Below are positions 25,433 to 61,638 of a stretch of DNA of 64,000 nucleotides, one piece after another. Each line of letters opens with the position of its first letter. Positions within the stretch are counted from its first letter, which is position 1. The position numbers and the translations under genes are program-made. Origin of the DNA: Gemmatimonadota bacterium (GTDB lineage Bacteria; Gemmatimonadota; Gemmatimonadetes; Gemmatimonadales; GWC2-71-9); the NCBI GenBank assembly GCA_003222115.1, contig QHUL01000050.1, forward strand, positions 17,086-81,085, written 5' to 3'. The notes under the pieces are model-generated. The model was given only the letters and a program-made list of their open reading frames with translations, was not told the origin of the DNA and searched no databases.

Positions 25433-25439
25433 ATCAAGT

Positions 25440-25533
25440 GCGGAATGTGGAGTGCGGAATGCGGAATGTCTGAGCGAAGTTCGTGCGGCACGACGTTGCA
25501 TTGCAATTCCGCATTCCGAATTCCGCGTTCCGC
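25440..25533. terminator. Long hairpin whose arms are 4 tandem heptamers (GCGGAAT / ATTCCGC), between convergent genes
   Basis: The left arm is GCGGAAT GTGGAGT GCGGAAT GCGGAAT (25440-25467). The right arm is ATTCCGC ATTCCGA ATTCCGC GTTCCGC (25506-25533). About 24/28 positions are complementary, and the loop contains TTGCATTGCAA. The right arm ends 1 nt before the amidohydrolase stop codon. Confidence 0.6.
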
Positions 25534-25534
25534 A

Positions 25535-27190
25535 TTATTTGTGATACACAACCTTCCCGCCCACGATCGTGTAGCTCACCCTCGCCCGGTCGAGCGAGTC
25601 GGGCGGTACGGTGAACAGGTTACGATCGACCACGACCAGGTCGGCGTAATAACCCGGGGCGAGCGTCCCCCATTTCCCCTCGTTGAAGGTCGCGTAGGCG
25701 TTCCCCTCCGTGTAGCCGCGAAGCGCCTCCCCGACCGTGATCTTCTGCTCGGGCACCCAGCCGTTCGGGTGCTTGCCGTCGAGGGTGCGGCGGGTCACCG
25801 CGGCATAGACGCCCAGGATGGGATCGAGCGGCGCGACGGTCCAGTCCGACCCGAAGCCGAGCTTCGCTCCGGTGTCGAGCAGCGTGCGGAACGCGTAGGT
25901 GGTCTTGATGCGGACCGGTCCAATCCGCCCCTCGACCCAGCGGCCGTCGTCGATCGCGTGGTAGGGCTGCATCGACGCAATCACGCCCAGGCGGCCGAAG
26001 CGGGGGATGTCCTGAGGCCGCAGGTGCTGCGCGTGCTCGACCCGGAAGCGCCGGTCGCGCGCCCCGTGGACCCTGGCGACGCTGTCGTAGATGTCGAGGA
26101 TGATGGCGTTCGCGCGGTCGCCGATGGCGTGCACGGTGACCTGCAGCCCCGCCGAGTCGCCGTTGCCGACCCAGCTGCGAAGGTCCGGCTCGGCATGCTG
26201 CATCAGCCCTGCGTAGCCCGCCGAGTCCGCATAGGGCTCGAAGAAATACGCGGTGCGGGAGCCGGCCGAGCCGTCCACGTACCCCTTGAGCCCGCCGATC
26301 TTGACCCAGTCGTCGCCCAGGCCCGAGCGGCGGATCGTGTCGGCGACCGCGCGCCAGTCGGAGAGATCGAGGTACAAGGCCACGCGCAGGGTCATCCGCC
26401 CGGCTTTCTCCAGCCGCCGATAGCTCGCGCGGTCGGCCCAGGATGCGGACACATGGGAGGTCGCGGTCACGCCCAGCGAGGCGGCATAGGCGAGCGCGCG
26501 CGCCAGCGCGGAGTCGCGCTGCTCGGGGCCCGGTTCCGGGACCGCTTTGCCGATCAGGCCCAACGCCTGGTCCTTGAAGATCCCGATCGGCTCGCCGGTC
26601 CGCGGATCACGCAGGATCTCACCACCGAGGGGCGTGGGCGTATCCTTGGTGACGCCGGCCGCCCTAATCGCGGCGCTGTTGGCGAGCGCCTCGTGCCCAT
26701 CGAGCCGGTCCACGAACACGGGATTGTTCGGGGTCACCGAATCGATCCATTCGCGCCGCGGCAGTGGGGCGCCCTTCCAGAGGGTGTGATCCCAGTCGCC
26801 GCCCGTGATCCATTCACCCGGCTTGAGCTTCTGGGCGTATGCCTTGAGCCGCCGGATGAACTCCTGCGGCGTGGCGGCATCGCGCAGGTCAACGGAGGCG
26901 AGCTGGAAGCCGCCGTTGATGAAGTGGGTGTGCCCGTCCGAGAACCCGGGCATGATGAGCCCGCCCCGCGCGGACAGCACCTGCGTCTCCCCGCCCACGT
27001 AGCGGCGCACCGCCGCAGTGTCACCGACCGCCAGGATCCTCCCGCCCCTGACCGCCACGGCGCCGGGCTGCGGTTCGCCGCTGGAGAGGCCGGTCCAGAC
27101 GACGCCGCCCGTGATGACGAGGTCGGCCTTGCGGCCGCAGGCAGCGAGACACATGAGCAACAGCCCCGGCACGGAGAAGCGTCGCGACAT
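25535..27190 (-). CDS. Amidohydrolase-family (Amidohydro_3-type) metal-dependent hydrolase; lipoprotein signal
   Basis: The N-terminus has a lipobox (LLLMCLAAC). Motifs include PGFSDGHTHF and HAIGD, with a C-terminal YTIVGGKVVY. Confidence 0.8.
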   Translation of the reverse strand: MSRRFSVPGLLLMCLAACGRKADLVITGGVVWTGLSSGEPQPGAVAVRGGRILAVGDTAAVRRYVGGETQVLSARGGLIMPGFSDGHTHFINGGFQLASVDLRDAATPQEFIRRLKAYAQKLKPGEWITGGDWDHTLWKGAPLPRREWIDSVTPNNPVFVDRLDGHEALANSAAIRAAGVTKDTPTPLGGEILRDPRTGEPIGIFKDQALGLIGKAVPEPGPEQRDSALARALAYAASLGVTATSHVSASWADRASYRRLEKAGRMTLRVALYLDLSDWRAVADTIRRSGLGDDWVKIGGLKGYVDGSAGSRTAYFFEPYADSAGYAGLMQHAEPDLRSWVGNGDSAGLQVTVHAIGDRANAIILDIYDSVARVHGARDRRFRVEHAQHLRPQDIPRFGRLGVIASMQPYHAIDDGRWVEGRIGPVRIKTTYAFRTLLDTGAKLGFGSDWTVAPLDPILGVYAAVTRRTLDGKHPNGWVPEQKITVGEALRGYTEGNAYATFNEGKWGTLAPGYYADLVVVDRNLFTVPPDSLDRARVSYTIVGGKVVYHK

Positions 27191-29580: not shown

Positions 29581-30493
29581 CCTCGTCGTAGATGTGCCGG
29601 TACGAAACGAGCCGATCGAGGTCGAACGCGCCCCGCTCCGCGGCCGTGCGCACGCCGCAATCCGGCTCGGCCAGATGGCGGCAATTGTCGAAGCGGCACT
29701 GGTCGAGGAAGCGGCGGAACTCGGGAAAACAGGGGGCGAGCAGCTCCGGGTCGACGCCCCAGGCCCCGACCTCCCGCAGGCCCGGCGTGTCCACCACGTA
29801 GGCGCCCCCCCCACCCCCCCCACCCACCCCACCCGCGGCGAGGGGCACGAGCTGCGCCGCCCGCGTCGTGTGCTTCCCCGTCCCCCACTTCTCGTTGATC
29901 TCGCCGATCCGGAGATTCAAGCCCGGCTGTAGCGCGTTCACGAGACTCGACTTCCCCACCCCCGATTCCCCGGTCAGGACGGAGGCACGGCCCCGCAGCA
30001 GGTCGCGCAGCGCGGGGAGACCCTCGGCCGCCTTGACCGACGTCGGGAGCACCTGATAGCCGGCAGGGCCGTAGCGGCGGCGGAACAGCTCGAGCGCTCC
30101 GCGGTCGAGCTCGAGTTTGTTGAGCACCAGCACCGGGGGGATGCGATTCGCCTCGGCGATCACGAGCAAGCGGTCGAGCATGCGGAAATTCGGCTCGGGA
30201 TCCCGTGCCGCCGCTACCACCACTACCTGGTCCACGTTGGCGGCGATCGGCTGCCGCCGGCCGGGCCCGCGCGTGCCGGACGAGCGGCGCGCGAGCAGCG
30301 AGCGGCGCGGGCGCACACCGGTGATGGCGGCCGGGCCGTCGCCGCGAACCTCCAGCTCGACCACATCCCCCGCGACCACGCGGTCATCGTCTTTGCGCTT
30401 GAGCTTCCCGCGCAGCACCGCCGTCATTTCCCCGCGCTCCGCGTGCACGCGATACGTCGAGCCTGTCCGAGCCAGCACCACGCCCGTGGTCAC
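29537..30493 (-). CDS. rsgA: Ribosome small-subunit-dependent GTPase A
   Basis: It has an OB-fold N-terminus, a circularly permuted GTPase (VLNKLEL, GESGVGKSSLVNAL, DTPG) and a Zn-finger tail (CRFDNCRHLAEPDCGV). It also contains an unusual poly-Gly insert. Confidence 0.92.
   Translation of the reverse strand: MTTGVVLARTGSTYRVHAERGEMTAVLRGKLKRKDDDRVVAGDVVELEVRGDGPAAITGVRPRRSLLARRSSGTRGPGRRQPIAANVDQVVVVAAARDPEPNFRMLDRLLVIAEANRIPPVLVLNKLELDRGALELFRRRYGPAGYQVLPTSVKAAEGLPALRDLLRGRASVLTGESGVGKSSLVNALQPGLNLRIGEINEKWGTGKHTTRAAQLVPLAAGGVGGGGGGGAYVVDTPGLREVGAWGVDPELLAPCFPEFRRFLDQCRFDNCRHLAEPDCGVRTAAERGAFDLDRLVSYRHIYDEVSVPSWSSGRRRGR
29805..29834 (-). repeat. C-rich (+) / G-rich (coding strand) low-complexity tract inside rsgA, encoding GGVGGGGGGG
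   Basis: The + strand reads ccccccccaccccccccacccaccccaccc, which includes two C8 homopolymers. Confidence 0.9.
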
Positions 30494-50963: not shown

Positions 50964-52835
50964 CTAGGCCACATGCCTTCGTCGCCAGCGGGCGGACTCC
51001 ACCACGAGATTATGCAGATCGCTCGGCGAGACGCCCGGGATCCGGGCCGCCTGCGCTAGGGAGGTGGGGCGCACCACGTCGAGCTTCTGTCGCGCCTCGG
51101 TCGCCAGACTCACCAGTTCGAGGTACGGCAGATCACCCGGCAGCGCGAACGATGCGAGTTCGGCAAGGCGCCGGGCGGCTTCCCGCTCGCGAACGAGGTA
51201 CCCCTCGTACTTGAGCTCGATCTCGGCCGACCTCACCACGTCAGCCTCGACCCGCGGCTCCGCCCCCGCGGCGCTGAGCAGCGCGCCGAGCGATGCGCCC
51301 GGTCGCTTCACGACCGACGCGATGCGCTCCGGCTCCACGAGTTTCGTTTCGGTCGGCGCGAGCGCCGCCGCCGCCTGCGCGGGAGTGATCGTCGTCTCGC
51401 GAGCGGCCACCAGCAGTCTTTCCTCCTCTCCCAGCCGCGCCTCCGCCACCCGAAGCTCGCTTGCCGTCAGCAGGCCCAGCGTCTCCGCCAGCGGCAGCAG
51501 CCGCCGCAGCGCGTTGTCCTGGCGCAGCAACAGCCGGAACTCCGAGCGCGACGTAAACAACCGATACGGCTCGTCTACGCCTCGCGTCACCAAGTCGTCT
51601 ACGAGGACCCCGATGTAAGCGTCGTCGCGCCCCAGCACCACCGGCTCCTGCCCGCGGATGCGCCGCACCGCGTTGATTCCTGCCACCGCTCCCTGTGCCG
51701 CCGCCTCCTCGTAGCCCGTCGTGCCGTTGATCTGCCCGGCAAACCACAGGTGCTCGAGCGCCTTGGTCTCGAGCCAGGGGGTGAGCTGGGTCGGGGGATA
51801 GTAGTCGTATTCGATCGCGTAGCCTGGCCGCGTCAGCTTCGCCCGCTCGAGGCCCGGCACGGCGTGCAGGAACTCGACCTGCACGTGGACGGGCAGGGAA
51901 GTGGACAGCCCGTTCACGTACAGCTCGGCCGTGTCGAGCCCTTCTGGCTCCAGGAACACCTGGTGACGCTTCGCGTCCGGGAACTTCACGACTTTGTCCT
52001 CGACCGACGGGCAGTAGCGCGGACCGCGTCCGCTAATCGCCCCGCCGTACAACGCCGACTCCTTCAGGTGCCGCTCGATGATCGCCTTCACCGGCTCGCC
52101 AGCCCACGTGATCCAGCAAGGCAGCTGGCGCGGCCGCTCCAGGCGCTGGTAGAACGAGAACCGGTAGTCATCCTGGTCACCGTCTTGCCGTTCCACTTTG
52201 GACCAATCGACGGTGCGCCCGTCCACTCGCGGCGGGGTCCCGGTCTTGAAGCGCGACACTGTAAGTCCAAGTGCGGCAATGTGTTGTGCAATATCGACTG
52301 CCGGTTGATCCCCCGCGCGGCCGGCCGGGATCGTCGTATCTGTGCCGACGTGAATCCGACCGCGCAGGAACGTGCCCGCCGTGATGATCACCGCCCGCGC
52401 AGTGAACCGGCGTCCATCGGTCGTTTCCACTCCTCCCACCTGGTCACCATGGACGACCAGCCGGGCGACCATCCCCTGGGTCAGATCGAGATCGCGGAAG
52501 CCCTCGACCAGCTCCCGTACCGCGCGGCGGTACAGCGTGCGGTCGCATTGCGCGCGCGGCGCCCACACCGCCGGGCCCTTGGAGCGGTTGAGCATGCGAA
52601 ATTGGATCGTCGCGCGGTCGGCGGCGCGACCCATCACACCGCCAAGCGCGTCGACCTCCCGCACCACCGTCCCCTTCGCGATCCCGCCGATCGCGGGATT
52701 GCAGGACATCTGACCGATGGTATCGAGGTTGGACGTGACGACGAGCGTGCGGGCGCCGAGCCGGGCGCACATGATGGCGGCTTCGGTGCCGGCGTGGCCG
52801 GCACCGACGATGAGGACCTCGTAGTCGAAGGGCAT
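50964..52835 (-). CDS. mnmG: tRNA uridine-5-carboxymethylaminomethyl(34) synthesis enzyme MnmG (GidA)
   Basis: It matches the family over its full length: YEVLIVGAGHAGTEAA...SCNPAIGGIAKG...GPRYCPSVEDK...QINGTTGYEEAAAQG. Confidence 0.96.
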   Translation of the reverse strand: MPFDYEVLIVGAGHAGTEAAIMCARLGARTLVVTSNLDTIGQMSCNPAIGGIAKGTVVREVDALGGVMGRAADRATIQFRMLNRSKGPAVWAPRAQCDRTLYRRAVRELVEGFRDLDLTQGMVARLVVHGDQVGGVETTDGRRFTARAVIITAGTFLRGRIHVGTDTTIPAGRAGDQPAVDIAQHIAALGLTVSRFKTGTPPRVDGRTVDWSKVERQDGDQDDYRFSFYQRLERPRQLPCWITWAGEPVKAIIERHLKESALYGGAISGRGPRYCPSVEDKVVKFPDAKRHQVFLEPEGLDTAELYVNGLSTSLPVHVQVEFLHAVPGLERAKLTRPGYAIEYDYYPPTQLTPWLETKALEHLWFAGQINGTTGYEEAAAQGAVAGINAVRRIRGQEPVVLGRDDAYIGVLVDDLVTRGVDEPYRLFTSRSEFRLLLRQDNALRRLLPLAETLGLLTASELRVAEARLGEEERLLVAARETTITPAQAAAALAPTETKLVEPERIASVVKRPGASLGALLSAAGAEPRVEADVVRSAEIELKYEGYLVREREAARRLAELASFALPGDLPYLELVSLATEARQKLDVVRPTSLAQAARIPGVSPSDLHNLVVESARWRRRHVA

Positions 52836-52856
52836 TGAGCAATAGTAGCGTACGCA

Positions 52857-52902
52857 GGCGGTAGTTCGGTAGGACTAGACGGATAGACGGCGAGACGGGT
52901 AG
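52857..52902. repeat. Array of about 6 tandem octamers (consensus RCGGNTAG), ~21 nt upstream of the mnmG start
   Basis: The units are GGCGGTAG TTCGGTAG (GACTAG) ACGGATAG ACGGCGAG ACGGGTAG. The array is the inverted partner of 53386-53417. Confidence 0.75.
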
Positions 52903-52915
52903 CGGTGCCCAGGGT

Positions 52916-53293
52916 CTAGTGGCGAGGTTGTCTCAACGCCGCGTCCCCGATCTTCCGCAACAACCCATAAAGCGTCTTACTTGTCTCCGTGGCAAGCGCC
53001 TCCAGCCGACCATATAGAGCTGGCTCGACGTAACCCAGGTCGCGAGCCATCTCAAGCATCGTTTCGACCTCGGCAAGCGACCCGCGCGCGGTGTCCAGGA
53101 ATCGCCGGTACTCACGAGATCCGTTCTTCGCACTACCCTCGGCGATGTTCAGAGGCACGCTGTAGCAAGCACGCCGCATCTGGCTGGCAAGAGCGTCCTG
53201 CTCGTAGTCGGGGAAGCTCCGCGCGGCTTTGACGCACTCGACAGCGAGGCGTTGAGCATGCTGCCAAGCCTTCAGGGTCCGATAAGGGGGCAC
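52916..53293 (-). CDS. Four-helix-bundle protein (TIGR02436 / 23S rRNA intervening-sequence S23p-type family)
   Basis: The sequence runs YRTLKAWQHAQRLAVECVKAARSFPDYEQDALASQMRRACYSVPLNIAEGSAKNGSREYRRFLDTARGSLAEVETMLEMARDLGYV. The NIAEG and GSxxE motifs are present. The start is a GTG, and the segment is visibly more A/T-rich than its flanks. Confidence 0.85.
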   Translation of the reverse strand: MPPYRTLKAWQHAQRLAVECVKAARSFPDYEQDALASQMRRACYSVPLNIAEGSAKNGSREYRRFLDTARGSLAEVETMLEMARDLGYVEPALYGRLEALATETSKTLYGLLRKIGDAALRQPRH

Positions 53294-53385
53294 GAAGCAA
53301 TACTACCGAGAGAGCCGACGCGGTACGGTACCGTTCTGTTGCGATCCGTATCGCACCTATGCATTCAGCTCCGCCCTAGCAACTG

Positions 53386-53417
53386 CTGCCCGTCTACCCG
53401 CCTACCCGTCTACCCTA
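53386..53417. repeat. Array of 4 tandem octamers CTRCCCGY (reverse complement of RCGGGYAG), overlapping the ABC permease stop codon
   Basis: The units are CTGCCCGT CTACCCGC CTACCCGT CTACCCTA. The permease TAG stop is at 53415-53417. Confidence 0.75.
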
Positions 53418-54674
53418 GCCCGCTCTTATCCACCTCACTAGCTCTTTGATGTTCGGCCGCTTCCCCGTCATGAGTATCCCCACCCGATAAATCCGCGCCG
53501 CCATCCAAGTCACGGCGACGATGCCCGCCGCCAGCAGCCCCAGCGACGCCCCGAGCTCCCCCGCCGGCACCGTGCTCGCCGCCCAGCGCACCGGCATCGC
53601 GATCGGCGCGGTGAACGGAATCAGCGACAACGTCACCGCGTAGGTCGACTCCGGGTTGTTTGTCAGCCCGAACATGGAGACGTAGGCGACGAGCAGCAGG
53701 AACATCACCGGCTGCTGCGCCTGGCGCGCCTCCTGCTCGTTGGAGGACATCGCGCCCACGGCGGCGTACATCGCCGAATAGAGGAAGAACCCGCCCAAGA
53801 AGTAGCTGAGGAACACGCCCAGCGTCGCCGCGGTGAGGTGGGGCATCTGGAACACCTGACGCGCCTCCTCCACACCGCCGAGATCTGCGAGCAGCGCCCG
53901 GCGCTGCGACAGCAATAGCTTCGCGCCGAGGCCCCACAGCACGAACTGGAAGAGCGACACCGCTCCCACACCCAGCACCTTCCCCATCATCAGCTGGAAC
54001 GGCCGCAGCGACGACACCAGCACCTCGACGATGCGGGTCGTCTTCTCCTCGACCACCGAGCCCATCACGTTCACGCCGTAAATCGTGATGACGAGGAAGA
54101 GCACGACCCCCATCACGTAGGCAAGCGCGAACGACTGGGCGGCGCTCTCGCCGGTCGTCGTCGAGCCGGAGATCTTCTTCGTCTCGAGACTGATCCGGAG
54201 CTGGGCACGCCCCACCAGGGCGGGGTCCACCCCCTGGCGCTCGAGACGGGCGGCCATCGCGAGCCGGGCGAGCACGTCCTGCAGCTCGGCGACATCGCGG
54301 AACGACGACACGTTGGACGCACGGTACTCGGCCGTGCCGGTCTCGACCACGGCGTCGGTCAGGATGAGGAAACCGTCCAGCTGCTTCGCGCCCACGAGCT
54401 GCGTGAGCGAGTCCACCACGCCTGCGCCCGCCGGCACGCGGGTCGCGCGAAAGATCTTGCCATGCCGGAGCCCTGCCGCGACCCGCTCCCCGAACGCTCC
54501 CGTGGTGGCGTCCACCACCGCGATACGGCGGGTGCCGCCCGCCCCCGCGAACAGCACCGGCACGACGATCATCGCCCCGAAGAACACGGGGCCGAGCAGT
54601 GCGGAGAACCAGAACCACTTGCTCCGGATCCGCTCCACGAACTCGCGCCGGATGACGGCCCAGATCTTACGCAC
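53415..54674 (-). CDS. ABC-2-type transporter permease (NatB-like)
   Basis: The N-terminus is MRKIWAVIRREFVERIRSKWFWFSALLGPVFF. It has a large extracytoplasmic loop followed by 5 C-terminal TM segments. Confidence 0.8.
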   Translation of the reverse strand: MRKIWAVIRREFVERIRSKWFWFSALLGPVFFGAMIVVPVLFAGAGGTRRIAVVDATTGAFGERVAAGLRHGKIFRATRVPAGAGVVDSLTQLVGAKQLDGFLILTDAVVETGTAEYRASNVSSFRDVAELQDVLARLAMAARLERQGVDPALVGRAQLRISLETKKISGSTTTGESAAQSFALAYVMGVVLFLVITIYGVNVMGSVVEEKTTRIVEVLVSSLRPFQLMMGKVLGVGAVSLFQFVLWGLGAKLLLSQRRALLADLGGVEEARQVFQMPHLTAATLGVFLSYFLGGFFLYSAMYAAVGAMSSNEQEARQAQQPVMFLLLVAYVSMFGLTNNPESTYAVTLSLIPFTAPIAMPVRWAASTVPAGELGASLGLLAAGIVAVTWMAARIYRVGILMTGKRPNIKELVRWIRAG

Positions 54675-61555: not shown

Positions 61556-61593
61556 CTAAACGAAAGGACCTTGGCGTGAATTCGCAAGTGGCT

Positions 61594-61638
61594 GTCAGCC
61601 ATCAGCTTTCGGCTGACGGCTGACGGCTGACCGCTCAG
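61594..61638. terminator. Hairpin built from GTCAGCC / GGCTGAC heptamers, overlapping the stop codon of the MocA-like gene
   Basis: GTCAGCCATCAGC (61594-61606) pairs with GCTGACGGCTGAC within the array GGCTGAC GGCTGAC GGCTGAC CGCTCAG (61611-61638). The stop TGA is at 61635-61637. Confidence 0.55.

Follow-up and report, generated by a model that had tools for sequence, protein, structure and literature searches.

The DNA analysed here is a stretch of 64,000 nucleotides (the window) from contig QHUL01000050.1 of a Gemmatimonadota bacterium (GenBank assembly GCA_003222115.1). Its minus strand carries, at 52857–53417, a gene for a 125-aa protein of the four-helix-bundle (4HB) family PF05635/TIGR02436 that is bracketed by complementary arrays of tandem octamers, and this 561-bp cassette is set between the gene of an ABC-2 family permease and mnmG. 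Octamer arrays flanking a 125-aa 4HB open reading frame (ORF) at this junction had been described in an initial annotation; the layout was confirmed in the sequence itself, with Tandem Repeats Finder and by protein family matches. The same arrangement of gene and arms was found at the orthologous junction of related genomes and in other phyla.

Structure of the cassette and its protein

The right-hand array was located on the permease stop codon and the left-hand array about 21 nt before the mnmG start, as annotated initially, and the lower GC content ascribed to the enclosed segment was also seen (0.59–0.62 for the cassette, against 0.70 for the 64-kb window). On the sense strand of the ORF the 5′ arm is purine-rich, abuts the TAG stop codon of the permease gene (53417–53415) directly and reads on from it as GG-TAGACGGG-TAGGCGGG-TAGACGGG-CAGCAG; the ORF starts approximately 80 nt beyond this array. 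The pyrimidine-rich 3′ arm lies after the 4HB stop codon and ends 21 nt before the mnmG start codon (ATG, 52835). Arrays were delimited by Tandem Repeats Finder at 52876–52902 and 53389–53415 (period 8, 3.4 copies each) and were paired by a repeat finder as a 39-nt inverted repeat (77 % complementary). Coordinates of all features are collected in the table.

Features of the cassette and of the host junction
Feature	Coordinates	Strand	Details
ABC-2 family permease gene, upstream host gene	53415..54674	-	PF12698, E=1.6e-44
5′ arm (relative to the 4HB ORF)	53374..53417	-	TAG-GG-TAGACGGG-TAGGCGGG-TAGACGGG-CAGCAGTTGCTAGGG; tandem octamers, AGACG core
Hairpin between 5′ arm and ORF	53317..53357	-	from folds and a 50-allele alignment; weaker in the window allele
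−10-like element TAGTAT	53300..53305	-	6 nt before the 4HB GTG (TAGTAT-TGCTTC-GTG)
4HB gene (23S_rRNA_IVP / S23p / Avd-like family)	52916..53293	-	125 aa, GTG start
3′ arm	52857..52914	-	CCCTGGGCACCG-CTACCCGT-CTCGCCGT-CTATCCGT-CTAGTC-CTACCGAA-CTACCGCC; complement type, CGTCT core
−10-like element TACTAT	52842..52847	-	6 nt before the mnmG ATG (TACTAT-TGCTCA-ATG)
mnmG (gidA), downstream host gene, followed by parA and parB	50964..52835	-	PF01134, E=2e-154

Counted across the window, the octamer consensus of the initial annotation (RCGGNTAG) was not enriched, with 15 matches against 12.8 expected; the octamer signal is one of arrangement, not of word count. No second copy of the cassette was found in the window or in the 20-kb flanks, and no Rfam family matched within 52700–53600. 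A reading of the arrays as DnaA boxes of a replication origin, given the neighbourhood of mnmG and parAB, was considered and rejected; a skew switch is missing from the window, and known DnaA boxes look different from the motif.

The encoded protein matched PF05635 (E=2.3e-32, 111.8 bits; cut-off 33.8), TIGR02436 (E=8e-31, 106.4 bits; cut-off 24) and the solved structure of XCC0516 (PDB 2GSC, E=1.6e-18). The motif G..R...S...N..E of the PF05635 family, which is quoted in PMC3936711, is present in the NIAEG region of the window protein as QMRRACYSVPLNIAEG and aligns with 2GSC. XCC0516 belongs to the same four-helix-bundle family as Avd of the diversity-generating retroelements (PDB 4DWL), and the solved members are homopentamers; from its homology to 2GSC the window protein is likewise expected to be pentameric. 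Avd is a pentamer of which all five protomers contact one RNA stem-loop (bioRxiv 10.1101/2023.10.23.563531). Unlike the template/variable repeat (TR/VR) pair of those retroelements, the repeats that flank the present gene are short tandem units of 8 nt. Neither of the two marks of such a retroelement, an adjacent reverse transcriptase and a repeat pair, was found at the cassette: reverse transcriptases were absent from the Pfam families listed within ±10 kb in four relatives, and no search aimed at template/variable repeat pairs was made.

Pairing of the arms, for which the initial annotation had named shuffled sequences as the control, clearly exceeded that control. The arm duplex was calculated at −64.2 kcal/mol, compared with −39.5±4.3 kcal/mol in 500 dinucleotide shuffles (z −5.8, 0/500), and local alignment of one arm with the reverse complement of the other gave a z-score of 6.8. 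When the minus-strand RNA (586 nt) was folded, the arms paired in both the minimum free energy and the centroid structure; the z-score of the whole molecule was only −1.0, which is not significant, and the duplex test on the arms alone was used in place of the whole-cassette fold z-score. Like the intervening sequences (IVSs) of 23S rRNA, the cassette has complementary termini able to form a long stem round its ORF.

Conservation, exchange and inversion at the permease–mnmG junction

The 4HB ORF served to find all relatives used for comparison of the junction; with this ascertainment no empty site could turn up among them. The exact window protein was present on 22 short metagenome contigs, and the ten that were inspected share context and arrays with the window. 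Homologues with 73–98 % identity were numerous, those with a named source coming from Gemmatimonadales or Gemmatimonadetes, and 80 loci were added by a metagenome scan. On long contigs the gene order is conserved as sufBCD-sufS/U, ABC ATPase, ABC-2 permease, 4HB gene, mnmG, parA and parB, and the permease neighbour is kept at related junctions wherever the sequence extends far enough. The 4HB gene was carried by every complete permease–mnmG junction (84/84), at identities to the window protein down to 69 %. The small selfish insertion that had been entertained in the initial annotation does not agree, as a recent event at this locus, with this result; judged by its distribution, the cassette is old and fixed at this site. 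A permease-based scan of a genome collection yielded one close relative (L011), in which the cassette is present, and 79 distant loci, mostly from Bacteroidota, without a 4HB gene. In the suf region of the relatives, L091 (5875–7588) and L094 (5999–7655) have the sufU-like (NifU_N) and cysteine desulfurase genes in opposite order.

Conservation of the site is combined with deep divergence of its content. The permease gene and mnmG are 98–100 % identical between the window and its relative L118, the cassette 30–78 %; the stretch of low identity extends from approximately 36 nt before the permease stop codon to approximately 15 nt before the mnmG ATG. In seven further pairs with flanks of at least 95 % identity, the ORFs were 63–71 % identical and lay in opposite orientation in five of the seven, which gives an overall picture of flanks 95–99 % identical around cassettes 63–71 % identical. 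The converse was found as well, with ORFs 96 % identical between flanks of 76–80 % identity. Breakpoints of exchange vary between pairs and fall in the flanking genes or inside the arrays, which argues for homologous recombination rather than precise site-specific integration. On these comparisons the cassette evolves as a unit of exchange. Among the alleles dN/dS is ∼0.10 and dS is ∼2 (saturated); because dS is saturated while dN/dS is this low, the alleles are taken to be ancient and the protein functional, and by the same measure the protein is under purifying selection.

The cassette occurs in both orientations. At 72 of the 84 junctions it is direct and at 12 inverted, the long 5′ side of the ORF then facing mnmG. 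Pairs in opposite orientation never exceeded 81 % identity in the ORF, so inversion (or reversed re-insertion) appears to be rare and old rather than a switch.

An inverted repeat flanks the ORF in all of the 73 distinct junctions (73/73), with z-scores against shuffles of 2.7–41 and above 10 in most. Over 67 distinct arm pairs, the median length was 47 aligned columns, and 84 % of these were Watson–Crick. The octamer unit differs between allele groups (TAGACGGG, GAGACGCC, CAGACGCA and others), whilst the pentamer AGACG (CGTCT on the opposite arm) is retained across them: 3.15 copies were counted per arm region, compared with 0.23 after shuffling; the dominant spacing is 8 nt, and at least two copies were present in 116 of 131 arm regions. 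Arrays of AGACG were absent elsewhere in the 64-kb window, in the 20-kb flanks of the relatives and in 1.4 Mb of distant loci. Conservation of the core points to recognition of a specific sequence; a simple stem for RNase III could do without it. Its resemblance to a BsmBI-like site (GAGACG) and to the MetJ met-box (AGACGTCT) was considered as an analogy only; identity with either is without support.

The hairpin between the 5′ arm and the ORF is formed in many other alleles by a stem of 10–14 bp flanked by an A-tract and a T-tract. The helix was specified manually and then counted on the leader alignment of 50 alleles, in which 67 % of cells were paired (58 % after shuffling, 38–45 % with slid partners); the covariation score was 0.344 vs 0.222 (0/500), and both-side changes were seen in 12 of 13 pairs. 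On the ORF sense strand G·U outnumbered A·C by 89 to 55 (p=0.006), in sequences that are not independent of each other. RNAalifold gave no consensus on the leader alignment.

The second internal element, a −10-like TAnnnT, was found 6–9 nt before the 4HB start codon in nearly all alleles; in the window it falls within 53294–53306, and its counterpart before mnmG within 52836–52848. TAnnnT also precedes several operon-leading genes in relatives (L091, L094, L100) at 6–10 nt from the start codon; these genes are without Shine–Dalgarno-like sequence, and one of them has a complete promoter, TTGACA-17-TAGGAT, ending 9 nt before its ATG. This suggests that leaderless mRNAs may be frequent in the clade, and that a promoter inside the cassette might give a leaderless or near-leaderless 4HB mRNA. 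A scan of the window for sigma-70 consensus promoters and a scan for terminators found nothing. The 21-nt direct repeat (52830–52850 and 53288–53308) that precedes the starts of both mnmG and the 4HB gene results from the TAnnnT-N6-start architecture shared by the two genes; it was rejected as a target-site duplication, this architecture being shared by other genes too.

The same layout in other phyla and its relation to known elements

Within the sampling used here, the layout of gene plus repeat arms recurs in three bacterial phyla. Orthologues of XCC0516 were found with a fragment of the 2GSC sequence in Xanthomonas, Stenotrophomonas, Dokdonella and Dyella (L181–L187, ∼2485–2935), and in all four genera they split accB from accC. 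Their arms are inverted tandem heptamers (GGGAATC and GATTCCC): CCGGGAATCGGGAATGGAGAATCGGGAATCG lies 5′ and overlaps the start codon of the 4HB gene, and CCCATTCCCCATTCTCGATTCCCTATTCCC lies 3′ and ends at the accC ATG. In Dokdonella (L183/L184, 4298–4390), an ORF-less inverted GGGAATG pair (4 + 4 copies, 38-nt loop) was observed between accC and prmA, and Dyella has a hairpin of unrelated sequence at this position.

A tblastn search of plasmids with the window protein returned 23 records, 14 of which were fetched (cyanobacteria, Azospirillum, Gemmatirosa). Inverted tandem arms of 7–8-mers were present at 12 of these 14 loci, each scoring above all control windows of its own locus. The initial annotation had bound the ORF to its arrays; on the plasmids this association held at the 12 loci and failed at the other two. 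The repeat unit is GAGGGCAG in Gemmatirosa, GGACAGA in Azospirillum, GGTGACA in Anabaena sp. 90, TAGGGAG in Nostoc edaphicum, GGAGTCA in Nostoc punctiforme, GGGAAAA in Nostoc ATCC 53789 and TTAGCTG in Calothrix. The host gene pairs comprise cas6/cas4, cas10/cmr3, the beta and alpha subunits of ribonucleotide reductase, and parA/parB. Read on the sense strand of the ORF, its 5′ arm proved purine-rich in 13 of the 15 independent cassettes. Three of the cyanobacterial plasmids (L192, L193, L200) carry their cassettes within CRISPR-Cas operons (cas6/cas4, cas10/cmr3), and the cassette's own unit is repeated there at the next intergenic gaps (for example L193, 2596–2625; L192, 2546–2722). The presence of 23S_rRNA_IVP genes inside cas loci was noted earlier, the repeats being unmentioned (PMC3936711).

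Two Nostoc plasmids allowed filled and empty sites to be compared. They share an operon (85–94 % nucleotide identity) into which unrelated 4HB cassettes are set at two adjacent gene junctions (L197, 2941–3362; L201, 2931–3437); in L197 the 3′ arm overlaps the last 4HB codons. The reciprocal sites are empty, consisting only of TAG-GTT-ATG or TAA-TTT-ATG. Since these empty sites are without arrays, ORF and arrays arrive jointly, as a single unit that terminates where the arrays terminate. A target-site duplication was not visible at the Nostoc cassette junctions.

Among the closest known counterparts are the ORF-bearing 23S rRNA IVSs of Coxiella burnetii and Leptospira, which share with the window cassette the PF05635 family and complementary termini that enclose the ORF. 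The IVS of Coxiella comprises 428 nt and encodes S23p. RNase III cuts its terminal stem of 28 bp, and its ORF is preceded by GACAGAT heptamers in tandem, whose number (three to four) varies between strains; an origin of this IVS from a transposon has long been suspected (PMC4990558). The two elements are of comparable size (561 bp and 428 nt), and both have tandem repeats in the 5′ region. Unlike the 23S IVSs, which lie in helix 25 or 45 of the rRNA, the window cassette is placed between protein-coding genes. It differs from the Coxiella IVS further in that tandem 8-mers sharing a conserved core make up both of its arms, in its promoter-like element, and in an ORF under purifying selection where that of Coxiella is decaying. 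The kinship with ORF-bearing IVSs that the initial annotation had drawn appears well supported by the shared protein family, the similar size, the terminal inverted repeats, the Coxiella heptamers and the arm pairing, and also by the layout in other phyla and the insertion as a unit in Nostoc.

A second relationship is with short tandem repeats described without a link to any gene. GGGAATC repeats occur genome-wide in Xanthomonas (186 sites, mostly of four units, with 70 convergent pairs in X. campestris) and have been considered as G-quadruplex candidates in a paper that does not mention XCC0516 (PMC4692102); it is exactly this repeat that forms the arms of the Xanthomonadales 4HB genes. Both it and the STRR-type heptamers of cyanobacteria resemble the arrays of the window cassette in being tandem (units of 7 nt, mostly in about four copies), intergenic and often set in convergent pairs; the window cassette has an 8-nt unit instead, which in the sequence examined is found at the cassette only. 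A single-copy gene flanked by inverted short repeats, with ORF-less inverted pairs elsewhere in the genome (the accC–prmA pair of Dokdonella, the genome-wide pairs of Xanthomonas), also recalls RAYT genes and their REP/REPIN sequences; in contrast to these, the 4HB protein is without known catalytic domain, and the repeats are tandem arrays, not single palindromes. With MITEs (miniature transposable elements that have inverted repeats) and small insertion sequences the homologous cassettes of the Nostoc plasmids share terminal inverted repeats at their exact ends and the occurrence of empty and filled sites; a target-site duplication is not visible, and the window cassette differs further in having no transposase family nearby, a single copy in the region, and exchange through flanking homology. 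A full-text search, of incomplete coverage and so giving absence of evidence only, found no paper that ties the PF05635 family to flanking tandem-repeat arms outside rRNA.

Three further inverted arrays, all without ORF, were observed in the window. Heptamer arrays of TGCGGAA (×4, 25437–25468) and ATTCCGC (×4, 25506–25536) lie between convergent genes, are separated by a 37-nt loop and fold at −65 kcal/mol (z −7.7); this hairpin could be an ORF-less relative of the 4HB cassettes or a bidirectional terminator. Octamer arrays GCGGATAG (1166–1188) and CTATCCGC-CTAACCGC (1313–1353) are 125 nt apart (fold z −5.9), the left arm directly after a stop codon and the right arm within the next long ORF, at its 5′ end. 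The third is a GTCAGCC/GGCTGAC heptamer hairpin with a 3-nt loop just past a stop codon (61590–61635); it is lineage-specific, since it is missing from the orthologous intergenic region of L091, L094 and L100. These hairpins were rejected as members of the cassette's own repeat family, because they are made of different units and the 61.6-kb hairpin, as just stated, is lineage-specific. Two other repeats were recorded: a coding tandem repeat at 54–555 (90 nt ×5.6, also 180 nt ×2.8), Asp-rich (…DSDHDGVPDGIDQCPDTP…) and reminiscent of the thrombospondin type-3-like repeats of OmpA-type proteins, and a C-tract of CCCCCCCCA ×3.3 at 29805–29834, inside or beside a minus-strand ORF.

Interpretation of the cassette

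The segment 52857–53417 is probably a resident 4HB cassette of the IVS type, with its arms as terminal inverted repeats. The unit would consist, in this order, of a 5′ arm of tandem N-AGACG-NN octamers, a hairpin, a −10-like element, the PF05635 gene and a complementary 3′ arm. Cassettes of this kind would insert whole, with gene junctions as targets and, in other bacteria, 23S rRNA as well; the present one would have been a fixed feature of the ABC-2 permease–mnmG junction ever since the common ancestor of the Gemmatimonadales clade. Its evolution would now proceed through recombination in the flanking genes, by which the cassette is replaced as a whole, and through rare inversion. Upon read-through from the permease gene, the arms would form an imperfect duplex of ∼40 bp that loops out the ORF. 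As this is the type of stem that RNase III cuts in rRNA IVSs, we infer by analogy that the arms may be cleaved in read-through RNA. The arms would also be read sequence-specifically, because AGACG is kept every 8 nt while the rest of the arm turns over. The most economical candidate for their reader would be the encoded pentameric 4HB protein; binding of the arms by this protein is suggested by a conserved core in combination with lineage-specific units.

Several observations weigh against this interpretation. Among the arm mismatches, G·U is not in excess over A·C (121 vs 105, p=0.32), so pairing of the sense-strand RNA is not demonstrably what selection maintains, and the arms may work mainly on DNA, as terminal repeats or as protein-binding sites. 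The hairpin and the −10-like element lie between the arms, which may usually place these on different transcripts; a transcript holding both arms may be rare. The breakpoints of exchange do not coincide with the arm ends, and the movement seen at this locus is ordinary recombination. No transposase, recombinase or reverse transcriptase was among the Pfam families listed within ±10 kb in the long-contig relatives. No empty permease–mnmG site was among the 84 junctions, all of them ascertained through the ORF. Finally, two of the 14 plasmid homologues, both adjoining a transposase gene, are without complementary arms.

The main rival explanation, less probable but to be taken seriously, is that the arms act on DNA only, as inverted arrays of AGACG binding sites every 8 bp for the 4HB pentamer or a host factor. 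They would then resemble transposon ends or the operator and centromere arrays of ribbon-helix-helix proteins, with RNA pairing as a by-product. Tandem arrays of this format can be protein operators, as are the met-boxes of MetJ (8 bp, 2–5 in tandem) and the heptads of the omega protein. Retention of the core during turnover of the remaining unit, the absence of a G·U bias, the possession of a separate unit by every lineage and the position of the arms at the exact termini of the inserted unit in Nostoc would all be explained. The variable octamer positions, however, also match between the two arms of a cassette (84 % Watson–Crick), which mere binding sites would not require, although gene conversion between the arms could achieve it; the homologous arms in 23S rRNA do act as an RNA stem; and the polarity of the purine-rich arm, 5′ of the ORF in nearly all independent cassettes, is easier to understand at the level of RNA. 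The two explanations overlap and differ only on whether RNA pairing matters.

A separator or insulator of transcripts that evolved in the host between the suf-ABC and mnmG-parAB operons, with the 4HB protein as a host regulator and without any mobile element, is unlikely. It is consistent with the fixed position across the clade, with purifying selection on the protein, with the hairpin and its A- and T-tracts between arm and ORF, and with the separate −10-like element of mnmG. It is opposed by the occurrence of the same unit of gene and arms in unrelated operons of other phyla (accB/accC, cas6/cas4, cas10/cmr3, ribonucleotide reductase beta/alpha, parA/parB) and by its presence or absence in near-identical Nostoc operons; deeply diverged alleles and both orientations in otherwise near-identical genomes would be unexpected of a simple insulator.

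Very little probability is given to an inverton, that is, a phase-variable segment that switches 4HB expression or read-through into mnmG. The 12 reversed junctions among 84 do have arms of the same type and fall into at least three allele groups (L102; L126/L130/L135; L167), but the limit of 81 % on the identity of oppositely oriented ORFs makes the flips ancient, not dynamic, and the ten inspected contigs among the 22 with the exact protein all have one orientation. Furthermore, no invertase or recombinase family was listed within ±10 kb, and the promoter-like element, being internal to the segment, is carried along with the ORF. That generic genome repeat hairpins (such as slipped-repeat terminators) came to lie beside an unrelated small gene by chance is hardly credible: the window does contain three ORF-less array hairpins (1166–1353, 25437–25536, 61590–61635), but these have other units and the testable one is absent from relatives, whereas AGACG arms are confined to the cassette and kept throughout the clade, the link of gene and arms is seen again in three phyla with scores above the controls from within each locus, and the empty Nostoc sites are without arrays. 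An inverton, a purely host-evolved insulator and chance are thus all poorly supported.

Beyond this locus, the layout of gene plus arms looks like a widespread small genetic cassette of which no description was found. The 4HB gene is nearly always accompanied by inverted arrays of a lineage-specific 7–8-mer, and the unit inserts between genes of essential operons (accBC, cas operons, ribonucleotide reductase, par, ABC-mnmG). Its residence at one site can be very long, and during this time entire alleles are exchanged between genomes that are otherwise identical. Small genes that split conserved operons are a frequent blind spot of annotation.

We tentatively consider a wider proposal, that PF05635 genes with inverted arms are the autonomous members of an unrecognised and widespread family of small mobile cassettes and that the ORF-less inverted arrays of 7–8-nt tandem units seen in several bacteria are its non-autonomous derivatives. 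If this were true, the 23S rRNA IVSs would be the rRNA-borne members of the family, and its derivatives would include the GGGAATC repeats of Xanthomonas, the STRR-type heptamers of cyanobacteria and the three ORF-less hairpins found in the window; the 4HB pentamer would recognise its own lineage-specific repeat, with ∼4–5 units per arm, as a RAYT does its REPINs. What the S23p/4HB family does, where the rRNA IVSs come from and what the abundant heptamer tandem repeats of cyanobacteria and xanthomonads mean have been open questions for approximately 30 years. The locus and its relatives connect all three, and make both the role of the family and the origin of the heptamer and octamer hairpins directly testable.

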